64,000 nucleotides of DNA, from positions 1 through 64,000 of the IMG/VR virus record IMGVR_UViG_3300047496_000213. One strand, written 5' to 3'. The position numbers and the translations under genes were made by a program. Below, piece after piece: positions 4,937-14,891 of this stretch. The notes beneath the pieces are model-generated. The model was not told where the DNA came from and searched no databases. It saw only the letters and a program-made list of their open reading frames with translations. Position 1 is the first letter of the stretch. Each line of letters begins with the position of its first letter. This DNA is from a virus.

Positions 4937-5277
4937 TGAGCAACGTTCAACGCCGGAAGCTTTCGCGCGCTCTGTGGAACAAGTTTCGCGAGTTGGGCGG
5001 CTATGAAATCGATATTGAGGCTGATCATTTAGGTAAGCGATATGAAGTTAATAAGTTCGGTTTCTATGTTCGCGGCGAAGAAGATACTTTGAAGAGTATC
5101 CGCAAGCGGCTAGTAACTCGTCTTCAAACTGAAGAAGAATTTACAGTCGTCATTGATGAAAAGTTGAGAACAGTCACCGTTTCTAGAAGTGATCGCCAAG
5201 CCTACGCCGTAATTGGAGATGTATTTGGCACCCCCCATGAAGGAGAATTTGTAATTAGCATAGGAGTATATTTATGA
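4936..5277 (+). CDS. Hypothetical protein
   Basis: TAATG coupling with the upstream gene. Confidence 0.6.
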   Translation: MSNVQRRKLSRALWNKFRELGGYEIDIEADHLGKRYEVNKFGFYVRGEEDTLKSIRKRLVTRLQTEEEFTVVIDEKLRTVTVSRSDRQAYAVIGDVFGTPHEGEFVISIGVYL

Positions 5278-5594
5278 GAAGGAAACTTATAGAATACTAT
5301 ATAATTAAACATAGACAGTGGCGTAAACGTATTGCCAAAAAGCAAAGCAATCATTGTTATTATTGTTCTACGACATTTGACGACAATAATTTGCAACTAC
5401 GATGCACACTTGATCATTTTCTGCCAATTTCTTTGGGTGGCATTGATGATAGAAAAAATACCGTAGCTGCTTGTTTTCGTTGTAATAATCGGAAAGACAA
5501 TCTTCATCCAAAAGATTTTCCGGCATCAGACGAATTTTCAGAAAATTATCAAAAACGTTTATATAAACTGTATGATTTTAAAAGACTCGTTTGA
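5274..5594 (+). CDS. HNH endonuclease
   Basis: CYYC...TLDHFLPISLGG...NTVAACFRCNNRK. Confidence 0.9.
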   Translation: MRRKLIEYYIIKHRQWRKRIAKKQSNHCYYCSTTFDDNNLQLRCTLDHFLPISLGGIDDRKNTVAACFRCNNRKDNLHPKDFPASDEFSENYQKRLYKLYDFKRLV

Positions 5595-6720
5595 TCGATT
5601 GAACGCGATCAGCGGGAAGTCTGAATTCGGATTCACCTAAAAGATATTCATCGGTCTGTTCTAATCTGACTTCACAGGCTAGAACACCGATATCTTTTTG
5701 CTCGCGATCTCTCATAATTTCCACTAATCGTTTTACTCCTATGAAAACAGGATTAACTCGAATTTTTGAGTGAGCCAGATAGTAGGAATACAGCATGACG
5801 ACATCTTCTGGTGTCTTGACCCAATCGAACCCAGGATGGCCGCCATGCTGCTTTGCTAATCGTTCCTCAATACCTTCTGCTTGACCCCAACGAATAATGG
5901 TTCTGGCTGTTAGTTCTCCATGAGCAATAGCCCAAATGTCTTTGAAACAGCGCATGATGTTACGAGCTATTTCTATATCGTGAGTGAACGATATGGTGGT
6001 CTGCTCTCCAAAATTACCGAGGCCAACCCGTTCCACTGGTTTTTCTGATGAAAAGCCAGTTTCCAAAATCTCATTACAAAATGCGGTAGCGTGATAAAGA
6101 GTTTCTTGTTCTTCATGATCTGGACGATAGTTCCCATGATAACTTGATCCAAGAATTTTATCGATTACGGTCAATTTTCTTTTTATAAGCTCGAATACTT
6201 TTTTAGCAGAATCAATAGCATGTTTCATCATTCTGAAACCTTTTAGAAGACCCATAGCTTGGACATATTCTTCATCTTGTAGATTGTCAGGATCGCCTTC
6301 TTTGTAGCCATATTTGACGGCGCCAGCTTCGGCATTTTCAAAATTACTTAATTCTAGAAATGGTTCCATGTAAGAGAATGTTCCAAGAATATATTTCCAA
6401 TGATTCTTTCCAAATTGTAGATACGCTTTAATATTATCAATAAGCCTATCTATTGGAACATTTCTTTCTAAAAAATATTCTTTGGTATACAGTAAGTTAT
6501 TATATAAAATATTACTGCCACCATCCCAAAAATTTTCATCATAAGACAACCACATATCAAGCATTTTTTCGCCATCTCTGGTATTATTTTTTTCTATAAT
6601 AGCAGTAGCTTCTTGAATTTCTTGTTTTATAGCAACAAGGTCTTTGACGCGATTCTTCAAAAATAAAGGAAGATTACGCGGCCTGTTTTCAATAGCTTCA
6701 TTTATTTCATGAAAACGCAT
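5578..6720 (-). CDS. ADP-ribosyltransferase-like protein, putative virion internal protein
   Basis: Probable start MRFHEINEA, coupled to the upstream stop; LYHAT, GLG, ISFTHD and GESEFR motifs. Confidence 0.6.
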   Translation of the reverse strand: MRFHEINEAIENRPRNLPLFLKNRVKDLVAIKQEIQEATAIIEKNNTRDGEKMLDMWLSYDENFWDGGSNILYNNLLYTKEYFLERNVPIDRLIDNIKAYLQFGKNHWKYILGTFSYMEPFLELSNFENAEAGAVKYGYKEGDPDNLQDEEYVQAMGLLKGFRMMKHAIDSAKKVFELIKRKLTVIDKILGSSYHGNYRPDHEEQETLYHATAFCNEILETGFSSEKPVERVGLGNFGEQTTISFTHDIEIARNIMRCFKDIWAIAHGELTARTIIRWGQAEGIEERLAKQHGGHPGFDWVKTPEDVVMLYSYYLAHSKIRVNPVFIGVKRLVEIMRDREQKDIGVLACEVRLEQTDEYLLGESEFRLPADRVQSIKRVF

Positions 6721-7502
6721 TACGGAAGGTGTTGCCAAACGTATCCCGCAACCGCATCTGTCACTATCATTTTTCGATAACCTTTTTTGATCTTAGTTTG
6801 GAATATTTTTTCACCATCGTTAAGGCTATCTATCATTTTGGTAGACAATCTGCCTTGATATTTACCCCAACATACGAAATATTCATTTCGTTTAGAGTCA
6901 TAATATACTCCATATACTTTGTCGTGATTGTTTTCGGCATCTTGTAATCTTGCAAAATAATACAATGTTATGTTTTTGTATTGTGGACCAGCCGCATTTG
7001 GTGCTTCATCGTAATCATTATTTGATGTGTTATTGTAATTTTTGTTTGAATTTTTTGACGATTTTTCAGATTTCTTTGCATTATCTTTTTTGGCTTGCTC
7101 TTCTTCACGTTTTCTACGAAGTTCGGCAGCGGCGGCTTCTCTGGCTTCACGTTCGCGTTGACGTTTTTCTCGTTCTTGTGCTTCTTTGCGCCAATTTCCG
7201 GTTTCTTCCCGGTTCATACCAGCACTAGATTGCCCGCTACCATTTTTGATGGCTTCGAACCGTTGTAAGAAAGTCTTTTTGGTCGCATCTGACATATTTT
7301 CTGCTTCTGCGTTGGCTTTGATTTCAAAACGTTTCATAGCTTCACGCGCAGCGGCCTTCTCTCCTTCTGTTCCCCCTCGGTCAATGAGGGCCTTGATACC
7401 TCTAGCTCTAGATAAAAACGATTCGGTATCAAATTCGAGAAGGATACCTTCTGAAACGATTTGATAGATTTCCATAAGTTGGATATGATCGCGGATATTC
7501 AT
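6720..7502 (-). CDS. WGR-domain protein with N-terminal DUF2786-like helix and coiled coil
   Basis: HDKVYGVY...FVCWGKYQG...KIKKGY (WGR); RGGTEGEKAAAREA; TATAAATA 5 nt upstream of the ATG. Confidence 0.75.
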   Translation of the reverse strand: MNIRDHIQLMEIYQIVSEGILLEFDTESFLSRARGIKALIDRGGTEGEKAAAREAMKRFEIKANAEAENMSDATKKTFLQRFEAIKNGSGQSSAGMNREETGNWRKEAQEREKRQREREAREAAAAELRRKREEEQAKKDNAKKSEKSSKNSNKNYNNTSNNDYDEAPNAAGPQYKNITLYYFARLQDAENNHDKVYGVYYDSKRNEYFVCWGKYQGRLSTKMIDSLNDGEKIFQTKIKKGYRKMIVTDAVAGYVWQHLP

Positions 7503-7556
7503 TTGACTATTTATAAAACATCTTGACTTTTGCGTGGCATTTTTTCATCATGTAAG

Positions 7557-8009
7557 ATGATGTATGATATCACCGATAAAGAAGAGCGCGCCGCCCAAAT
7601 GGTGGCGACAGTTTGTCAAAATTTATTGATGTATGGCGCAATAGATCGCACCAAAAATCTATACTCCAATTATGCAATAGTTATGGGCTTACGTCTCGAT
7701 TGCTATTCAGAAAATAAGATTGAAGATATTGTCATAGATACTCAGTTAAAGAAATCGTTACGCCCTATACCAAGACATATGATATTCTATACACTTTTTA
7801 CTAAAAACTGGACAGCGGATATTTTATACGACGCGCGAGGTTATTTATACTTTCCAGACATTTCATCGTCAGATCAAAAAAATATAAAATGGGGGGGATA
7901 TTATCATTGTTTGCTTCGTTTTAGAGTAACGGATCAAGATGCATTCAATAAAGATATGTCTATATTGAAAATGATAGACGATTGGGAAGATCATATACGT
8001 ATAGAATAA
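7557..8009 (+). CDS. Hypothetical early protein
   Basis: TTGACT upstream; ORF. Confidence 0.55.
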   Translation: MMYDITDKEERAAQMVATVCQNLLMYGAIDRTKNLYSNYAIVMGLRLDCYSENKIEDIVIDTQLKKSLRPIPRHMIFYTLFTKNWTADILYDARGYLYFPDISSSDQKNIKWGGYYHCLLRFRVTDQDAFNKDMSILKMIDDWEDHIRIE

Positions 8010-8016
8010 ATATAAT

Positions 8017-8676
8017 ATGCTTGAAGAAACGCATCTTCCCCTTCGTAAAGGAACTATATCTAACTCTCGCGGAGTATATAGTGCTTTCATCGTAGTCATG
8101 AGCCCAATGAATTTTCTCAAGTTGACTACTGACGAATATGCTTTCCGGCAAATTCAAGACGATGTTGAAGACAACTATCAAAGTGGACAGCATGCAGAAT
8201 ACCAACAACAAGGCAATTATGAACTTCCATATCTGATTATCGATTATTACTCTGGAAAAGTTATAGGGCACGAAGGCAGACATCGCGCCATGATGATTCT
8301 AAAAGAAGGCGGATCACGTTTTCCATGTTCTATAGAATGTAGACAACCTAAAATATGGGAAGTAAAATATTACGAATATGCAGATGATGACATGCATTCA
8401 CAAAGATTTACGAGTTCAGAAAAAGCCAGGGAATTCAGAGATTCGTTATATGCTGCAAATTTTGACAGTATAGATGAATTATACGATAATATAACTACCG
8501 AAATGGTTGGTGGCGGCTATATGCGTGGCTCTCCACGATCCAAAGGCTGGGATTATGACGCTTGGACTGTAGCTGACTTTCCAAAGTTTTTAGAAAGTCA
8601 ATTTACTTCAGTAAAAGTTCCCGCAACTGCTATGAGAATTGGATTAGTCAAAGGATATAGTCACTTTAACAGATGA
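8017..8676 (+). CDS. ParB/sulfiredoxin-like domain protein
   Basis: PYLII...VIGHEGRHRAM motif; TAAATA 4 nt before the ATG. Confidence 0.7.
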   Translation: MLEETHLPLRKGTISNSRGVYSAFIVVMSPMNFLKLTTDEYAFRQIQDDVEDNYQSGQHAEYQQQGNYELPYLIIDYYSGKVIGHEGRHRAMMILKEGGSRFPCSIECRQPKIWEVKYYEYADDDMHSQRFTSSEKAREFRDSLYAANFDSIDELYDNITTEMVGGGYMRGSPRSKGWDYDAWTVADFPKFLESQFTSVKVPATAMRIGLVKGYSHFNR

Positions 8677-8834
8677 AATATATAACGGAAGCTGAATACA
8701 ATATAGGTATTGCATATATAGATAAACATTTTGATGAAATTCGTCCTATTGGTTCACCAGAAGGAGATTACTTTGAAATGATTATGTATGCAGTTATGGA
8801 TTATGAAGAAACCCATTATGATATAGCAGATTAG
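8673..8834 (+). CDS. 53-aa protein resembling the HigA antitoxin N-terminal domain (not in the ORF track)
   Basis: ATGA overlap with the upstream gene; MKYITEAEYNIGIAYIDKHFDEIRPIGSPEGDYFEMIMYAVMDYEETHYDIAD. Confidence 0.65.
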   Translation: MKYITEAEYNIGIAYIDKHFDEIRPIGSPEGDYFEMIMYAVMDYEETHYDIAD

Positions 8835-9838
8835 CTTACTGTATTATCATCATCATTGCGCTGAATCATGTATTGACGAATATCCAAGCGCAATTTAGGA
8901 TTACGGTTCGTTAAGTGTAGCAAACCATGATCGTCGGTTCGCAAGTCCTGATTCGGATCAAATTCGTTATCAACTATTACTGACCAACGTTCAACATACT
9001 TACGATTTGTCTTACGACCGTGCCAATGATGGTGAATCAAACCGTTGCAATAACCAAGATCACAGTTGACTATTTTGGAGGCATTTGAGCACCATTCCAA
9101 AGCATCTCTTTTATATGCCTCGGATGCGGCGCCATGGATACCAAACGCGGGCTGGTTGATAAATGCCCAAGCCATATGATAGTCAGAAGCTCCAATGATA
9201 GTCTTTTCGTAGAGCCCTCCAAGTTTCTCCCAAGTCGAACGCTTCATAGCCCAAGCATATCCTGTATGCCACTCACAACCGCCGTAAGCATGACTGAATT
9301 TAATTCCATGATTAAAGCAATAGGCAAAACTTCTAACCACTTCTCGTTTGTCGGGAGTTGGAAAAGTTAATGGATGACCATTAGGATCAAGATCAACAGC
9401 GCGCGCCCACATCTGAACAACCTCGTATCGATTTAACTTATACATCGTTTCGACTGCGATATTAGAATTGAAAAACGTAAGATCGGTATCGATCCAAGCG
9501 AAATATTCGGCATCTGGATAAAGTTTTATAGCATTTTTGATGCCAAGATTTATTAGATTTTCCTTTTGAAAGAACTCGCTATCGGTTCTAAGTTGAAGAT
9601 GATGCGGATTGTGATGGTCAGTAATTTGGAAGGGTGAGTGTTTACCAACTACTAATTCCACTTCATGTAAAGTAATTCCTAGACTTTGCATGTGTTCTCG
9701 AAATTGAAGGTAGTTTGCTAATGGTTTGTGAAAGCGATTGAAGTTAAAGTAGACAGCAATTACATGTAAATTTGCGGGGTTGTCGATAGACGTAGGAGTC
9801 GTTTTAGGAACGAGAGCTTCGAAGATTTTTTCGACCAT
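8831..9838 (-). CDS. Glycosyltransferase-like protein (GT-A fold)
   Basis: QKENLINLG, AWIDTD (DxD), GYAWA, GGLYE, HHWHG. Confidence 0.7.
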   Translation of the reverse strand: MVEKIFEALVPKTTPTSIDNPANLHVIAVYFNFNRFHKPLANYLQFREHMQSLGITLHEVELVVGKHSPFQITDHHNPHHLQLRTDSEFFQKENLINLGIKNAIKLYPDAEYFAWIDTDLTFFNSNIAVETMYKLNRYEVVQMWARAVDLDPNGHPLTFPTPDKREVVRSFAYCFNHGIKFSHAYGGCEWHTGYAWAMKRSTWEKLGGLYEKTIIGASDYHMAWAFINQPAFGIHGAASEAYKRDALEWCSNASKIVNCDLGYCNGLIHHHWHGRKTNRKYVERWSVIVDNEFDPNQDLRTDDHGLLHLTNRNPKLRLDIRQYMIQRNDDDNTVS

Positions 9839-9923
9839 GGATGACCTTAATGGGAAGAAGATTTTATGCTATTTAGTCTAACAAAATCTTCCACTTCTAG
9901 CCAATTTAAAATATTGTCAAGCT

Positions 9924-11048
9924 TTAATTATTATTTTTGTCATAATCAATTTGACGGAATTTTGAGTAAGCAAGTTCAAGCAATCTTTGATGAAATTCTT
10001 GATAATGGTCGAAAGATTTTCTAAACATTTGTTCATGTTTCTTGAAATCATCGAAGTTTATGGTATCCAAAATCTTCACAGGAAATCGTTTCATCCCAGA
10101 TGTATAATCCGAATGCTCGCTAACTTTACCGAATCGTGGATCGACATACTTAACATCTTCTGGATCGACATAGAAAGGCACGCCTTCGCTGGCGCAATAA
10201 GACAGCGCATAAGTCATCATCATTCGTTTTATTTTGTCATTATCGCCACCAAATTGAACTAAAATACCCTTTCCATGTGGCACTCTTACCAAACATACAC
10301 CAAGGACCATTTTTTCTATCCAGTATTCGTCGGTATCATTGCCGGTATTCTTATAAATGTCCTTCAATTTTTTATCGTATAACACACAATCGTTATCACC
10401 GACATAGAGCATCCAATCTTTTGGATCATGTGTGGCATAATTTGCTGTTGATTTAGTTTGACGTATATCTACTTTTGCGCTGTTGATAATCTCTTTGGCT
10501 CTCTTTACAGACATTTTTCCAGATTGAACCATCTTTGTATACAATCCAGATTTCATCGCATTTCTAACCATTTCACGATATACTTTTTGGAATGTTCTAT
10601 AACCAGCGGAAGTGAACCCGCCAGATGTTTTAGTTGGTTCTAGTTCCCATGCAATTTTTCCGAGAATTGGGCCTAAGCCGAAGCCTCTATATTCTTGAGC
10701 CACTATGTATAATACACAACCCCATTCGTCCTGTAATGTTGCTACACATTGGTCGTTATCATCAAATATAGCAAAAGTATAGTCTTTACTATATGGTTTC
10801 ATTCGGTTTCTAAGTGGTTCTGGTCTTTGTCTTATTTCTAATTTTACACCGTTGATCTTTATAGTCTTAATTAATTTGGTATAATTGGATTTTTTAATAT
10901 ACTCTCCTAGTCCCGCTATTGATGCTCCACGTTCATAAGCAGTATCAGGATGCCATTTTCCGTTTTGACCAACAATCTGATAATATTCATCGAACGTCAA
11001 CAATGCTGGATTAAGCTGTTCTTTTTCAAAAAGGTCGATGATATGCAT
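9924..11048 (-). CDS. GNAT-like domain protein, putative virion internal protein
   Basis: VAQEYRGFGLG acetyl-CoA motif; SGGFTSAG; N-terminus MHIIDLFE; TATAAATA 5 nt upstream. Confidence 0.65.
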   Translation of the reverse strand: MHIIDLFEKEQLNPALLTFDEYYQIVGQNGKWHPDTAYERGASIAGLGEYIKKSNYTKLIKTIKINGVKLEIRQRPEPLRNRMKPYSKDYTFAIFDDNDQCVATLQDEWGCVLYIVAQEYRGFGLGPILGKIAWELEPTKTSGGFTSAGYRTFQKVYREMVRNAMKSGLYTKMVQSGKMSVKRAKEIINSAKVDIRQTKSTANYATHDPKDWMLYVGDNDCVLYDKKLKDIYKNTGNDTDEYWIEKMVLGVCLVRVPHGKGILVQFGGDNDKIKRMMMTYALSYCASEGVPFYVDPEDVKYVDPRFGKVSEHSDYTSGMKRFPVKILDTINFDDFKKHEQMFRKSFDHYQEFHQRLLELAYSKFRQIDYDKNNN

Positions 11049-11100
11049 TTATATATTTATAGTTGCTTGACAAAAACTCTAAATATGCGATTATACTTTC

Positions 11101-11439
11101 ATGACCAAACAAAACCCATACGACGTGAATTATCCTGGAAAATTCGAAACGGCCTTTGCCGGTTTCGATGATGGATTTTTTGCGTTTCGTTTGGTCCTTG
11201 GCGATCATAAAGGTCTTGACGCATGCATGTTCCAGATGGAAGTTAGCCAATGGCTTTTTGACAATGCCCAAGGCAAGTGGTATATGGGAAATGGGTTTCC
11301 CTATGAGGATCATCCTAAGATGAACTTATATAACCCTGCCCATACTGATTATTTTGTCCTGTTTGATCAATTCGTGGACGTAGTTGCTTTCGAAGATCAG
11401 TTTCCGGTTAACGGATTATCGCCTTCTATGTTGGTCTGA
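11101..11439 (+). CDS. Hypothetical early protein
   Basis: TTGACA promoter directly upstream. Confidence 0.65.
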   Translation: MTKQNPYDVNYPGKFETAFAGFDDGFFAFRLVLGDHKGLDACMFQMEVSQWLFDNAQGKWYMGNGFPYEDHPKMNLYNPAHTDYFVLFDQFVDVVAFEDQFPVNGLSPSMLV

Positions 11440-11453
11440 GGTTCTGATGTTCT

Positions 11454-12080
11454 ATGAGCTTACATGCTAAAAATTATTTTCGACTCAAAAATCCAGAAGG
11501 TTTGTTTTGGGATGGAGAAATTTCTAAGAATAAATATCCAACTTTTTCGAAAGATGGCGAATTAATTTACAATATAGAAGCATTAAATAATAAACTTTCT
11601 AGATATGAATTATTTAGATTGTATTTTCCTTCTGTGCCAAAATTGACAACTGTTTCCTACGTAGTTGGAATTATTGAAGAACAAGAAAAGGAATCAATAA
11701 TATCAGAGGCAAAAATACAATCAGCACGTATTGAGTTTTTGCAACCGAATAAATCATATTATGGTTCTCTTTCTCGCTTTCTAAATAATGGAATAGATAG
11801 AGACGCTTTAACAAACTTATTGAGTCATCCTGAATGTAATGAATTTTTATTCATGGGTTTTGCTAAACCAACAACATTGACGGATGAAGAAAAAAACTCA
11901 ATAATATCAAGCTTAGATCGACCTTGTGTCTACCATGATTCTGTGGCTGTTCGTTCCATGAAAGACCTAATTTATTTCAAAATAGTTGTGGGAGATCGTT
12001 TTAAAACGTATATGGATTTGTATAAAAATCCATTTCCTATGCTTACCAAACAGCAGCAAAAAATCCACAACCCTACTTGA
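11454..12080 (+). CDS. Hypothetical protein
   Basis: 208-aa ORF; SD GAGG. Confidence 0.65.
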   Translation: MSLHAKNYFRLKNPEGLFWDGEISKNKYPTFSKDGELIYNIEALNNKLSRYELFRLYFPSVPKLTTVSYVVGIIEEQEKESIISEAKIQSARIEFLQPNKSYYGSLSRFLNNGIDRDALTNLLSHPECNEFLFMGFAKPTTLTDEEKNSIISSLDRPCVYHDSVAVRSMKDLIYFKIVVGDRFKTYMDLYKNPFPMLTKQQQKIHNPT

Positions 12081-12110: not shown

Positions 12111-14891
12111 ATGACCAGAGATTATAAAGAAACGCTGTTTTTACCAACTACCTCATTTTCCCTTCAAGGCACGAAGGATGAAAATATGGTAAGATCGAGC
12201 TTTGACTATTCACCAACGGTTAATCCCGATTTCGTTTTGCATGATGGCCCTCCATATGCCAACGGCGACATTCATATGGGGCATGCTTTAAACAAAATCT
12301 TGAAAGATATGGTTGTTCAATCTCAGCGTGGGCTTGGAAAATCTGTTGAATACAGGCCGGGATGGGATTGCCACGGCTTGCCAATTGAATCACAAGTCGA
12401 AAAAGAACTTCTGGAACAAGGTATCGCAAAGAACGATCTTTCGGTGATGGATTTCCGCTCGCGTTGCAGAGAATATGCAATGTCGTGGGTGGAAACACAA
12501 AAGAAACAATTTCAGTCACTAGGCGTTAGAGCAGATTGGGATAATCCTTATTTGACGATGAATTTCAAAACTGAAGCGACAATCGTTTCGAAGTTTCATA
12601 GTATGCTTATGCGTAACTGTGTTTATCGTGGAACAAAACCAGTTCAATGGAGCACTGTTGAACAAACGGCGTTGGCTGAAGCCGAAGTAGATTACAAAAA
12701 TCTGAAAACACGATCTGTTTATGTTGCCTACACTATCGGCACAGATACAGAATGGATGCAGAATACTCGTGTTTTGATCTGGACTACTACACCATGGACG
12801 CTTCCCGCTAGTGCGGCAGTGGCCTTTAATCCAGATTTAGAATACGGCATCTATGAAGTTGTCGAAGTGGATAATGAAGCAAAATGTAAGCCGGGTGATC
12901 GCTTTATCCTAGCTGATGCTCGCGCAGAAGCGGTTATGACTGATATTCACGTTGATCGTTACACGTGGTTAGGCGCGACTGATCCTAGATTTTTGGTTGT
13001 TCGTCACCCCTTATATAAAGAAAATGAGGCGTTTGTTGCTGGCATTCCGTTGCTTCCTGGCAAGCATGTTACGGACGAAGCTGGAACCGGCTTGGTTCAT
13101 ACCGCGCCTGATCATGGACAAGAAGACTTCGCTTGCTGGAATGCTAGTAATCAAGGTGAATATCCTGTAGCTATCGGGCCGGATGGTGTGTATCTGGATT
13201 GGGTTCCGTATTTTGCCGGTCTGAATGTCTTGAATCAGACGCCAAAGGGCGAATATATTTTTGAATTCACCAACGCCAAAATCATCAAAGCGTTGGAAGA
13301 TGCTGGCAATTTGGTTGGCGTAAACAATCTGGTGCATTCTTATCCGCATTCTTGGCGTTCGAAGGCGCCGTTGGTCTATCGCGTCACTCCACAATGGTTC
13401 TTGCGCCTCAAAGATACACGCGAATTGGCTGTTAAACTTCTAGATAATGTGAAATTTTATCCAGAAAGTTCAAAAAATCGTCTTGTCGCATCGGTTGAAA
13501 ACCGTCCAGATTGGTTGCTAAGTCGGCAACGAGTTTGGGGGACGCCTATGGCAGTATTTCTGAACAATGTTAGTGGTGATGTTCTTCATTGTTGGGAGTT
13601 GAACGACAAAATCGCCAAGGTTTTCGCTGAAGAAGGCGGGGATGCTTGGTGGAAATATAGCACGTCGGAATGGTTCGCTGGTATCGATGCGATTTCTCAT
13701 CTTGATCCAAATCATTATGAAAAGGTTAACGACGTTCTCGACGTTTGGTTTGATTCCGGTTGCAGTTTCCATTTCATCGACAAGAAGCCAGACCTTTGTA
13801 TTGAAGGCTCTGATCAGCATAGAGGCTGGTATGGAAGCGCGTTGTTCGTTGGTCTGAATCACAATGTCAAGGCGCCCTGGAAGGCTCTGATGACGCATGG
13901 CTTTGTTCTCGACAAGAACGGCATCAAAATGTCTAAGAGTGCGGGGAATGTCGTTAATCCTCTGGTCGAAGCCAAAAAATACGGAACCGATGTTATTCGT
14001 ATGTGGGCGGCCATGAGTGATTACACGCAAGACATGCGTGTTGGTGATCAAATCCTCAAGACGACTTCCGAACAATATCGCAAGCTTCGGAATACGCTGC
14101 GCTATCTGGTCAGCAATCTGCAAGGATATGAGTTTGGAAAGTTCAAATCTGAGTTTGATTTTCCATTAGAAACGCATGTTTTATATCTTCTTGAATCCTT
14201 AGAAGAAAAAATTCGTCTGGCCTATTCCGAATACCGTTTCAATGACGTAATGCGTGATATCATGCAGTTTTGCAATAATGATTTGTCTGCGTTCTATTTC
14301 GATATCCGTAAAGACATGCTTTATTGTGATGCAGAGACTTCGGAAAATCGGCAAGCTTGCCTGGAAACCCTTTCGCGTGTTTTTGATTGTCTTACTTCTT
14401 GGCTTATGCCGATCCTTCCCTTTGCCGCTACCGAAGCTCGCCAACTGGTAGGACGTCCGGTAGATTCTGTTTTTGCTATGGCTCCGAATGTATCTCCGTG
14501 GGAATATGCGAACGAAAAACAATGGGCTGTTGTTCGCTCGACCATCAAGAATGTAAATGAAGCGTTGGAAGAAAAACGCAAGGCTAAAGAAATCGGCGGT
14601 GCTTTGGAAGCGAATGTTTTGGTATTCCTTCCTAAGGATGATTTCGCGGAGTTTTGTGATGGAGTAGATTTGCGTAATCAAGCGGTTGATTTCTTCAGAA
14701 CAAGTCAGGCGACCATCTTCGAATCTGTTGATGATTCGGTAAAAGTGGAAGTCTATAAAGCACAAGGTAATAAGTGTGCTCGTTCTTGGAAAATTCTTAC
14801 AGAAGTAGGGACAGATTCAGCGTATCCTGATTTGTCTCTGCGTGATGCGGAGGCGGTTAGACAATGGGATTTAAAAAATGGGTCGTTATAA
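12111..14891 (+). CDS. ileS: Isoleucyl-tRNA synthetase (bacterial type 1)
   Basis: HDGPPYANGDIHMGH, PGWDCHGLPIE, WTTTPWTLP (editing), EGSDQHRGW, KMSKS. Confidence 0.97.
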   Translation: MTRDYKETLFLPTTSFSLQGTKDENMVRSSFDYSPTVNPDFVLHDGPPYANGDIHMGHALNKILKDMVVQSQRGLGKSVEYRPGWDCHGLPIESQVEKELLEQGIAKNDLSVMDFRSRCREYAMSWVETQKKQFQSLGVRADWDNPYLTMNFKTEATIVSKFHSMLMRNCVYRGTKPVQWSTVEQTALAEAEVDYKNLKTRSVYVAYTIGTDTEWMQNTRVLIWTTTPWTLPASAAVAFNPDLEYGIYEVVEVDNEAKCKPGDRFILADARAEAVMTDIHVDRYTWLGATDPRFLVVRHPLYKENEAFVAGIPLLPGKHVTDEAGTGLVHTAPDHGQEDFACWNASNQGEYPVAIGPDGVYLDWVPYFAGLNVLNQTPKGEYIFEFTNAKIIKALEDAGNLVGVNNLVHSYPHSWRSKAPLVYRVTPQWFLRLKDTRELAVKLLDNVKFYPESSKNRLVASVENRPDWLLSRQRVWGTPMAVFLNNVSGDVLHCWELNDKIAKVFAEEGGDAWWKYSTSEWFAGIDAISHLDPNHYEKVNDVLDVWFDSGCSFHFIDKKPDLCIEGSDQHRGWYGSALFVGLNHNVKAPWKALMTHGFVLDKNGIKMSKSAGNVVNPLVEAKKYGTDVIRMWAAMSDYTQDMRVGDQILKTTSEQYRKLRNTLRYLVSNLQGYEFGKFKSEFDFPLETHVLYLLESLEEKIRLAYSEYRFNDVMRDIMQFCNNDLSAFYFDIRKDMLYCDAETSENRQACLETLSRVFDCLTSWLMPILPFAATEARQLVGRPVDSVFAMAPNVSPWEYANEKQWAVVRSTIKNVNEALEEKRKAKEIGGALEANVLVFLPKDDFAEFCDGVDLRNQAVDFFRTSQATIFESVDDSVKVEVYKAQGNKCARSWKILTEVGTDSAYPDLSLRDAEAVRQWDLKNGSL

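Follow-up and report, generated by a model that had tools for sequence, protein, structure and literature searches.

Phage proteins that neutralise toxin-antitoxin (TA) defences are few, and the antitoxin homologues known among them are type IV enzymes, such as the DarG-like AdfN. AdfN, a NADAR protein directed against DarTG1, was presented by its authors as the first antitoxin homologue from a lytic phage (PMC11825919), and a DarG2-like protein of a chimallivirus is another antitoxin homologue with a counter-defence role (PMC13309987). Both, like ICP1 Gp145, T4 Dmd and TifA, are toxin-neutralising proteins found without a toxin in lytic phages, and both are type IV enzymes and true antitoxin homologues, whereas Gp145, Dmd and TifA are unrelated binders. 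Type II antitoxins are considered difficult to recognise and too narrow in their specificity for borrowing, and a review of anti-TA strategies from November 2026 gives no type II-derived example (PMC13728456).

The type II antitoxins that matter here are those of the YgjM-type HigA family (E. coli K-12 HigA, PDB 5IFG, 6KMQ and 6JQ4; phage D6 orf72). According to a comparative structural study, E. coli HigA wraps HigB with two helices, carries its helix-turn-helix (HTH) domain at the C-terminus and dimerises via one helix (PMC7984235). In our comparison, E. coli HigA has ~20 extra N-terminal residues, and in the ~119-aa antitoxins of this type the two-helix hairpin is the only part that lies outside the HTH. 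A gene for a ~100-aa PF09907 HigB_toxin, a ribosome-dependent RNase, sits directly upstream of the antitoxin gene in 111 of 139 family loci. In one Halomonas locus (L028:1865-2569), higB-higA is followed by a slightly overlapping PRiA4_ORF3 gene (PF07929, E 7e-50), which may be a recurrent third gene in some modules of this kind.

The same toxin and antitoxin recur in PD-lambda-2, an experimentally validated abortive-infection system of E. coli (PMC9519451). Its A component is a PF09907 HigB (E 8e-41 for the toxin against PD-Lambda-2_A), and B opens with 119 positions made up of the YgjM-type N-domain followed by the HTH (D6_72-like antitoxins match PD-Lambda-2_B positions 1-119 at E 4e-43). 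The 402-position model of B continues into a C-terminal ImmA/IrrE peptidase, and A and C are its partners. In an unusual arrangement, B, the HigA-like Xre protein with a peptidase, is the toxic component and is neutralised by the HigB-like A (PMC9519451). In HigBAC, defence against lambda is driven by HigB toxins (bioRxiv 10.1101/2024.02.24.581848).

Here, we analysed a 64-kb stretch of viral DNA (hereafter the window), which is part of an 81.8-kb IMG/VR record with a CheckV completeness of ~14%. The public runs that contain the stretch are moss metagenomes only, with no RNA run among them, and a blastn search of positions 7000-12000 against phage records returned no match. The subject is ORF53, an intact reading frame of 53 codons whose position, parts and neighbours are listed in Table 1.

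Table 1. Location of ORF53, its parts and its surroundings, in window coordinates.
Feature	Position	Strand	Remarks
ORF53 CDS, 53 aa	8673..8834	+	ATG at 8673, TAG at 8832-8834; intact frame
Domain core, residues 5-52	8685..8828	+	gapless on family HMM positions 8-55 of 57
Predicted helix 1, residues 6-19	8688..8729	+	begins with conserved TE.EY; AlphaFold2
S-P-E-G-D motif, residues 28-32	8754..8768	+	loop / helix 2 junction; family signature [ST]PEGD
Predicted helix 2, residues 29-48	8757..8816	+	carries invariant YE..HY; AlphaFold2
Upstream gene, 219 aa	8017..8676	+	translationally coupled to ORF53; weak ParB_N-like lead; not HigB-like
Converging gene, 335 aa	8831..9838	-	glycosyltransferase-like match, weak
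Sigma70-like promoter match TTGACA-17-GATAAT, 11/12	8462..8490	+	inside upstream gene, ~180 nt before ORF53; consensus match only
Sigma70-like promoter match, 10/12	7461..7489	+	precedes co-oriented run 7530-8009, 8017-8676, 8673-8834; consensus match only

ORF53 is homologous to the N-terminal two-helix, non-HTH domain of YgjM-type HigA antitoxins, an assignment in which we place very high confidence. Among curated profiles it matches only phrog_10398 (E 2.3e-7, 31.9 bits, residues 5-51 on model positions 8-54 of 66; the PHROG library has no curated cut-off), and searches of Pfam, NCBIfam and the PDB sequences gave no meaningful match. We also assembled a family set of our own, in which 144 loci from genomes and viral contigs yielded 89 distinct full-length proteins, and built an HMM from their first 57 positions. 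Against this HMM, ORF53 scores 34.8 bits over 48 residues without gaps, while the best of 5000 shuffles of ORF53 reaches 10.4 bits; none of the other six-frame ORFs of the window (1021) is among the matches above the shuffles. Profile comparison by hhalign gives the pair a probability of 97.2% (E 4.1e-11). Three further comparisons point the same way: a tblastn search of 2.3 Gb found phage D6 orf72, labelled 'HigA family addiction module antitoxin' (34% identity, E 5e-3); the three nearest ESM Atlas clusters listed are short 'HigA family' or 'transcriptional regulator' proteins (best 0.91, with 201 shared features); and PD-Lambda-2_B positions 9-55 are weakly matched (E 0.034). D6 orf72 itself (119 aa) can be aligned from end to end with E. 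coli K-12 HigA (5IFG_B; E 8.7e-8); its first 66 residues match phrog_10398 at E 4e-40, and Pfam HTH_3 covers residues 63-115. The HigA N-terminal pattern given in the original prediction is a real one, in agreement with the consensus of the 89 distinct YgjM/D6_72-type N-domains (..PIRTExDYxAAL..V....FD.EP...TPEGD.FEV...LIEAYE.KHYPI), and the profile similarity to HigA families that it presupposed is present.

What ORF53 has in common with this family is an acidic helix-loop-helix with the motifs TE.EY, [ST]PEGD and YE..HY.I. There are 26 family columns conserved at ≥70%, ~20 of them inside the aligned core, and ORF53 is identical at 10 and falls in the same residue group at 15. The likeness has its limits, as overall identity is only ~30% and three near-invariant family residues are replaced (A by G12, L by I13 and L by A40). 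An AlphaFold2 model from a 17-sequence alignment shows a helical hairpin with a mean pLDDT of 91.5. When overlaid by VIA on residues 23-71 of the HigA chain from the E. coli HigBA complex (6kmq_B), the model aligns over 47 aa (Z 4.7, rmsd 2.5 Å) in the register predicted by the sequence alignment. Because the VIA score of E. coli HigA was tied with those of generic hairpins, we count this overlay only as consistency with homology. Foldseek returned nothing significant for either ORF53 model, as expected for a 53-aa hairpin.

ORF53 also lacks parts of a HigA system. It ends at family position 55 of 57 and the HTH_3 of D6 orf72 starts at residue 63, which bears out the earlier remark that the ORF stops where the HTH would start. 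An HMM of the HTH-containing C-domain finds nothing in any frame of the window, and we therefore rejected an HTH lying in another frame or past the ORF53 stop. In addition, there is no space for an HTH, since the last 4 nt of ORF53 are shared with the 3′ end of the 335-aa ORF that converges on it. In contrast to YgjM-type HigA, ORF53 thus has no C-terminal XRE HTH with which to bind DNA or to form an HTH-mediated dimer, and it has no adjacent HigB and resides in a lytic jumbo phage. The earlier statement that no cognate toxin is nearby can be extended to the entire 81.8-kb record, ~14% of the phage, where no RelE/HigB-family gene was found and the toxin Pfams PF09907, PF05015, PF05016 and PF05973 are all without a match; NADAR (PF08719) is likewise without a match on the record at E ≤ 0.01, and an HMM built from the family's own HigB partners has no match in the window. 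Set beside PD-lambda-2, ORF53 corresponds to nothing but the hairpin, and neither an HTH nor a peptidase nor partner genes of that system were found for it. Strictly speaking, ORF53 falls outside the HigA antitoxins, since it comes without HTH and without toxin partner. We regard it as a domain-only derivative, a variant of the phage-borne orphan antitoxin reduced to the N-domain. With regard to AdfN-like counter-defence, it is an antitoxin homologue whose toxin is absent from the record, which covers ~14% of the genome.

We propose that ORF53 may be a decoy antitoxin which binds a HigB-type toxin of the host and keeps it inactive. This is the best-supported reading of ORF53, and we hold it tentatively, at just short of an even chance. 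We infer the toxin binding, its timing, its target and the benefit to the phage as follows. Synthesis of ORF53 would begin early in infection through coupling to the upstream gene, with a sigma70-like promoter of its own perhaps contributing. The protein would then bind a host HigB-type toxin released from an ordinary HigBA pair once the host ceases to transcribe; alternatively, its target might be the HigB-like component of a PD-lambda-2-like defence. The bound toxin would stay inactive, and ORF53, having no HTH, would play no operator-binding role.

Several lines of evidence argue for such a decoy. The partner of the family is nearly always a PF09907 HigB, and the HigB/HigA pair forms the core of the validated PD-lambda-2 system. 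The two helices with which E. coli HigA reportedly wraps around HigB (PMC7984235) are putatively those of the same hairpin. ORF53 keeps the acidity of the family, with a net charge of -10 and a pI of 4.15, where the family N-domains average -6.6 and the HigB partners average +3.8 with a pI of 9.25. The excision of the domain is clean, as none of the frames retains a trace of an HTH, and the gene is codon-adapted, long resident and still intact. Lastly, AdfN and the DarG2-like protein provide precedents for orphan-antitoxin counter-defence in lytic and jumbo phages. Other considerations count against it. In type II systems, an antitoxin generally works only on its cognate toxin (PMC11825919). 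In PD-lambda-2 it is A that neutralises the toxic B, so that sequestering A could harm the phage rather than help it. The three changed near-invariant residues and the missing Shine-Dalgarno motif also weigh against a decoy, as does the small share (~14%) of the phage genome that is available.

A more specific proposal, that a minimal, DNA-binding-free decoy made from a type II antitoxin silences PF09907 HigB toxins, among them the HigB-like component of PD-lambda-2-type defences, seems to us possible rather than probable. If true, ORF53 would be the first counter-defence protein derived from a type II antitoxin in a lytic phage, and a lead to a PD-lambda-2 inhibitor. It would differ from AdfN-like counter-defence in being a type II antitoxin cut to its binding domain, and a hairpin-only HigA of this kind would alter the view that such antitoxins are poor material for borrowing. 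It would also mean that type II antitoxins can be pared to a decoy, provide a sequence signature for finding further decoys, and serve as a probe for defences based on PF09907 HigB such as PD-lambda-2. ORF53 would likewise constitute a natural test of whether the hairpin alone suffices to neutralise HigB.

We also looked for relatives of ORF53 and for other HTH-less copies. Single-sequence searches returned only ORF53 itself (5.8 billion clusters near its length, longer lengths, and phmmer against 1.84 billion representatives), and the IMG/VR scan contained no orthologue. Searching IMG/VR with a degenerate DNA pattern for PEGD...YE..HY recovered only D6-like copies and full-length prophage higA genes. 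In the metagenome scan, only four full-length bacterial higA genes (L196-L199) share the APIGSPEGD of ORF53, and two of the four are preceded by HigB. Because these nearest metagenome relatives are full-length bacterial higA genes, the likely history is that a bacterial YgjM-type higA was captured and its HTH then lost.

Front halves of HigA without an HTH also occur elsewhere. Nine D6/P1-like phage-plasmid contigs (L125-L133, positions 1501-1701 in each) carry a 66-aa truncation of D6 orf72, ~90% identical and with no HTH remnant. This is the form that phrog_10398 models, and it adjoins an unrelated, intact PF05015 HigB / HigA pair. Given the ~90% identity and the unrelated live pair next to them, these forms look like recent truncations. 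They cover the same domain as ORF53, likewise without the HTH, whereas ORF53 is old, divergent and codon-adapted. A further AT-rich contig of 170,951 bp (IMGVR_UViG_3300037484_000374; L145:1498-1707) encodes a toxin-less 69-aa HigA front half that is 46% identical to D6 orf72 and ends 13 positions into the HTH. Its GC content of 46.7% is foreign to the locus (35.4%), so this copy looks recently acquired. Short HigA fragments are, moreover, numerous in enterobacteria. The orf72 HigA of full-length D6 is an orphan too, as no PF09907 toxin adjoins it.

Against this background, ORF53 might be a neutral relic, the front half of a captured higA from which HTH and toxin were deleted and which is open by chance and functionless. 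The 66-aa D6/P1-like forms and the many enterobacterial fragments illustrate that HTH-less front halves arise by decay, and ORF53 itself lacks a Shine-Dalgarno motif and detectable orthologues and has changed at three near-invariant positions. We nevertheless consider a relic unlikely. With a GC content of 29.6% and a GC3 of 16.7% in a window of 37.4% GC, ORF53 is fully ameliorated, and its codon adaptation index (0.82, the best of the six frames) exceeds that of the phage's long ORFs (0.715 ± 0.048). Such codon adaptation and low GC suggest that ORF53 has long resided in an AT-rich phage genome while staying open, and an unselected frame of 53 codons should have broken. The match to the conserved columns (10 of 26 identical, 15 in the same residue group) and the acidity have also been kept. 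Finally, the limits of ORF53 are those of the domain, with no HTH debris, in contrast to the foreign GC and HTH stub of the L145 copy. Taken from composition and conservation, this evidence favours ORF53 being a maintained phage gene.

The immediate surroundings of ORF53 raise another explanation. The start of ORF53 and the TGA stop of the 219-aa ORF share the ATGA at 8673-8676 (+), so the coupling to the preceding gene that had been proposed is borne out by the coordinates. We found no Shine-Dalgarno motif within the 20 nt before the ORF53 start, and translation therefore probably relies on this coupling. The description of the upstream gene as ParB-like fared less well: it has no match in Pfam, PHROG or NCBIfam, and what stands is a weak lead from Atlas clusters in which 17-23% of the members are ParB_N. 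The IMG/VR scan yielded no relatives of this gene. We also considered the 219-aa protein as a hidden HigB and rejected it, as hhalign against the PF09907 HigB alignment gave a probability of 0.4%. The 219-aa protein contains G-H-E-G-R-H-R-A, and its Atlas leads are ParB_N-like or plasmid fertility-inhibition-like and structurally weak (TM under 0.5).

ORF53 could accordingly be a re-used hairpin that partners the coupled 219-aa protein, for example as inhibitor or chaperone of a ParB/Srx-like enzyme, in a two-gene module of a new kind with the hig-like order of effector first and binder second. With an ATGA overlap and no Shine-Dalgarno motif, the two proteins should be made by coupled synthesis in about equal amounts, the order of the genes resembles that of higBA, and the weak ParB_N-like leads are all that the upstream protein offers. 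However, the upstream protein has no HigB/RelE similarity, as the hhalign probability above indicates, and T4-like phages show many ATGA overlaps, whatever the functions of the genes involved. On balance we regard such a partnership as quite unlikely.

The incompleteness of the record leads to a further reading, in which ORF53 would be the antitoxin or immunity partner of a HigB/RelE-like RNase that the phage encodes in the unseen 86% of its genome. Such an RNase might serve to shut off the host or to attack other phages, and would need restraint. The limited extent of the record (81.8 kb, ~14% complete by CheckV) speaks for it, but the two genes lie side by side in 111 of 139 family loci, which makes a split pair atypical, and the record holds no RelE-superfamily gene. 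We judge this reading very unlikely, and the decoy directed at a host toxin remains the one that we prefer.

The original prediction had suggested from the MKYITE-A start that ORF53 may be virion-packaged. A reading of ORF53 as capsid-targeted cargo, which would enter the virion by means of an N-terminal M..I.E leader (here M-K-Y-I-T-E) and reach the host along with the injected DNA, is not supported and seems highly improbable, since I-TE-EY opens helix 1 and is a conserved feature of bacterial HigA N-domains, so that HigA homology explains it with no need for packaging, since cleavage after E6 would take off the start of that helix, and since the late-promoter motif TATAAATA is absent from the + strand in 7000-8700, upstream of the 7530-8834 gene run, where only sigma70-like sites occur.

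Other genes of the window are mentioned here for completeness. A 106-aa HNH endonuclease (5274-5594, +; Pfam HNH_5, E 2e-10) is probably a free-standing homing-type nuclease. The 386-aa ORF at 5578-6738 (-) matches the T4 RIIA.1-like PF24210 weakly at its N-terminus, with an E of 0.002 that lies below the cut-off. Further downstream, a 926-aa ORF (12111-14891, +) has a sequence that looks like that of an isoleucyl-tRNA synthetase.
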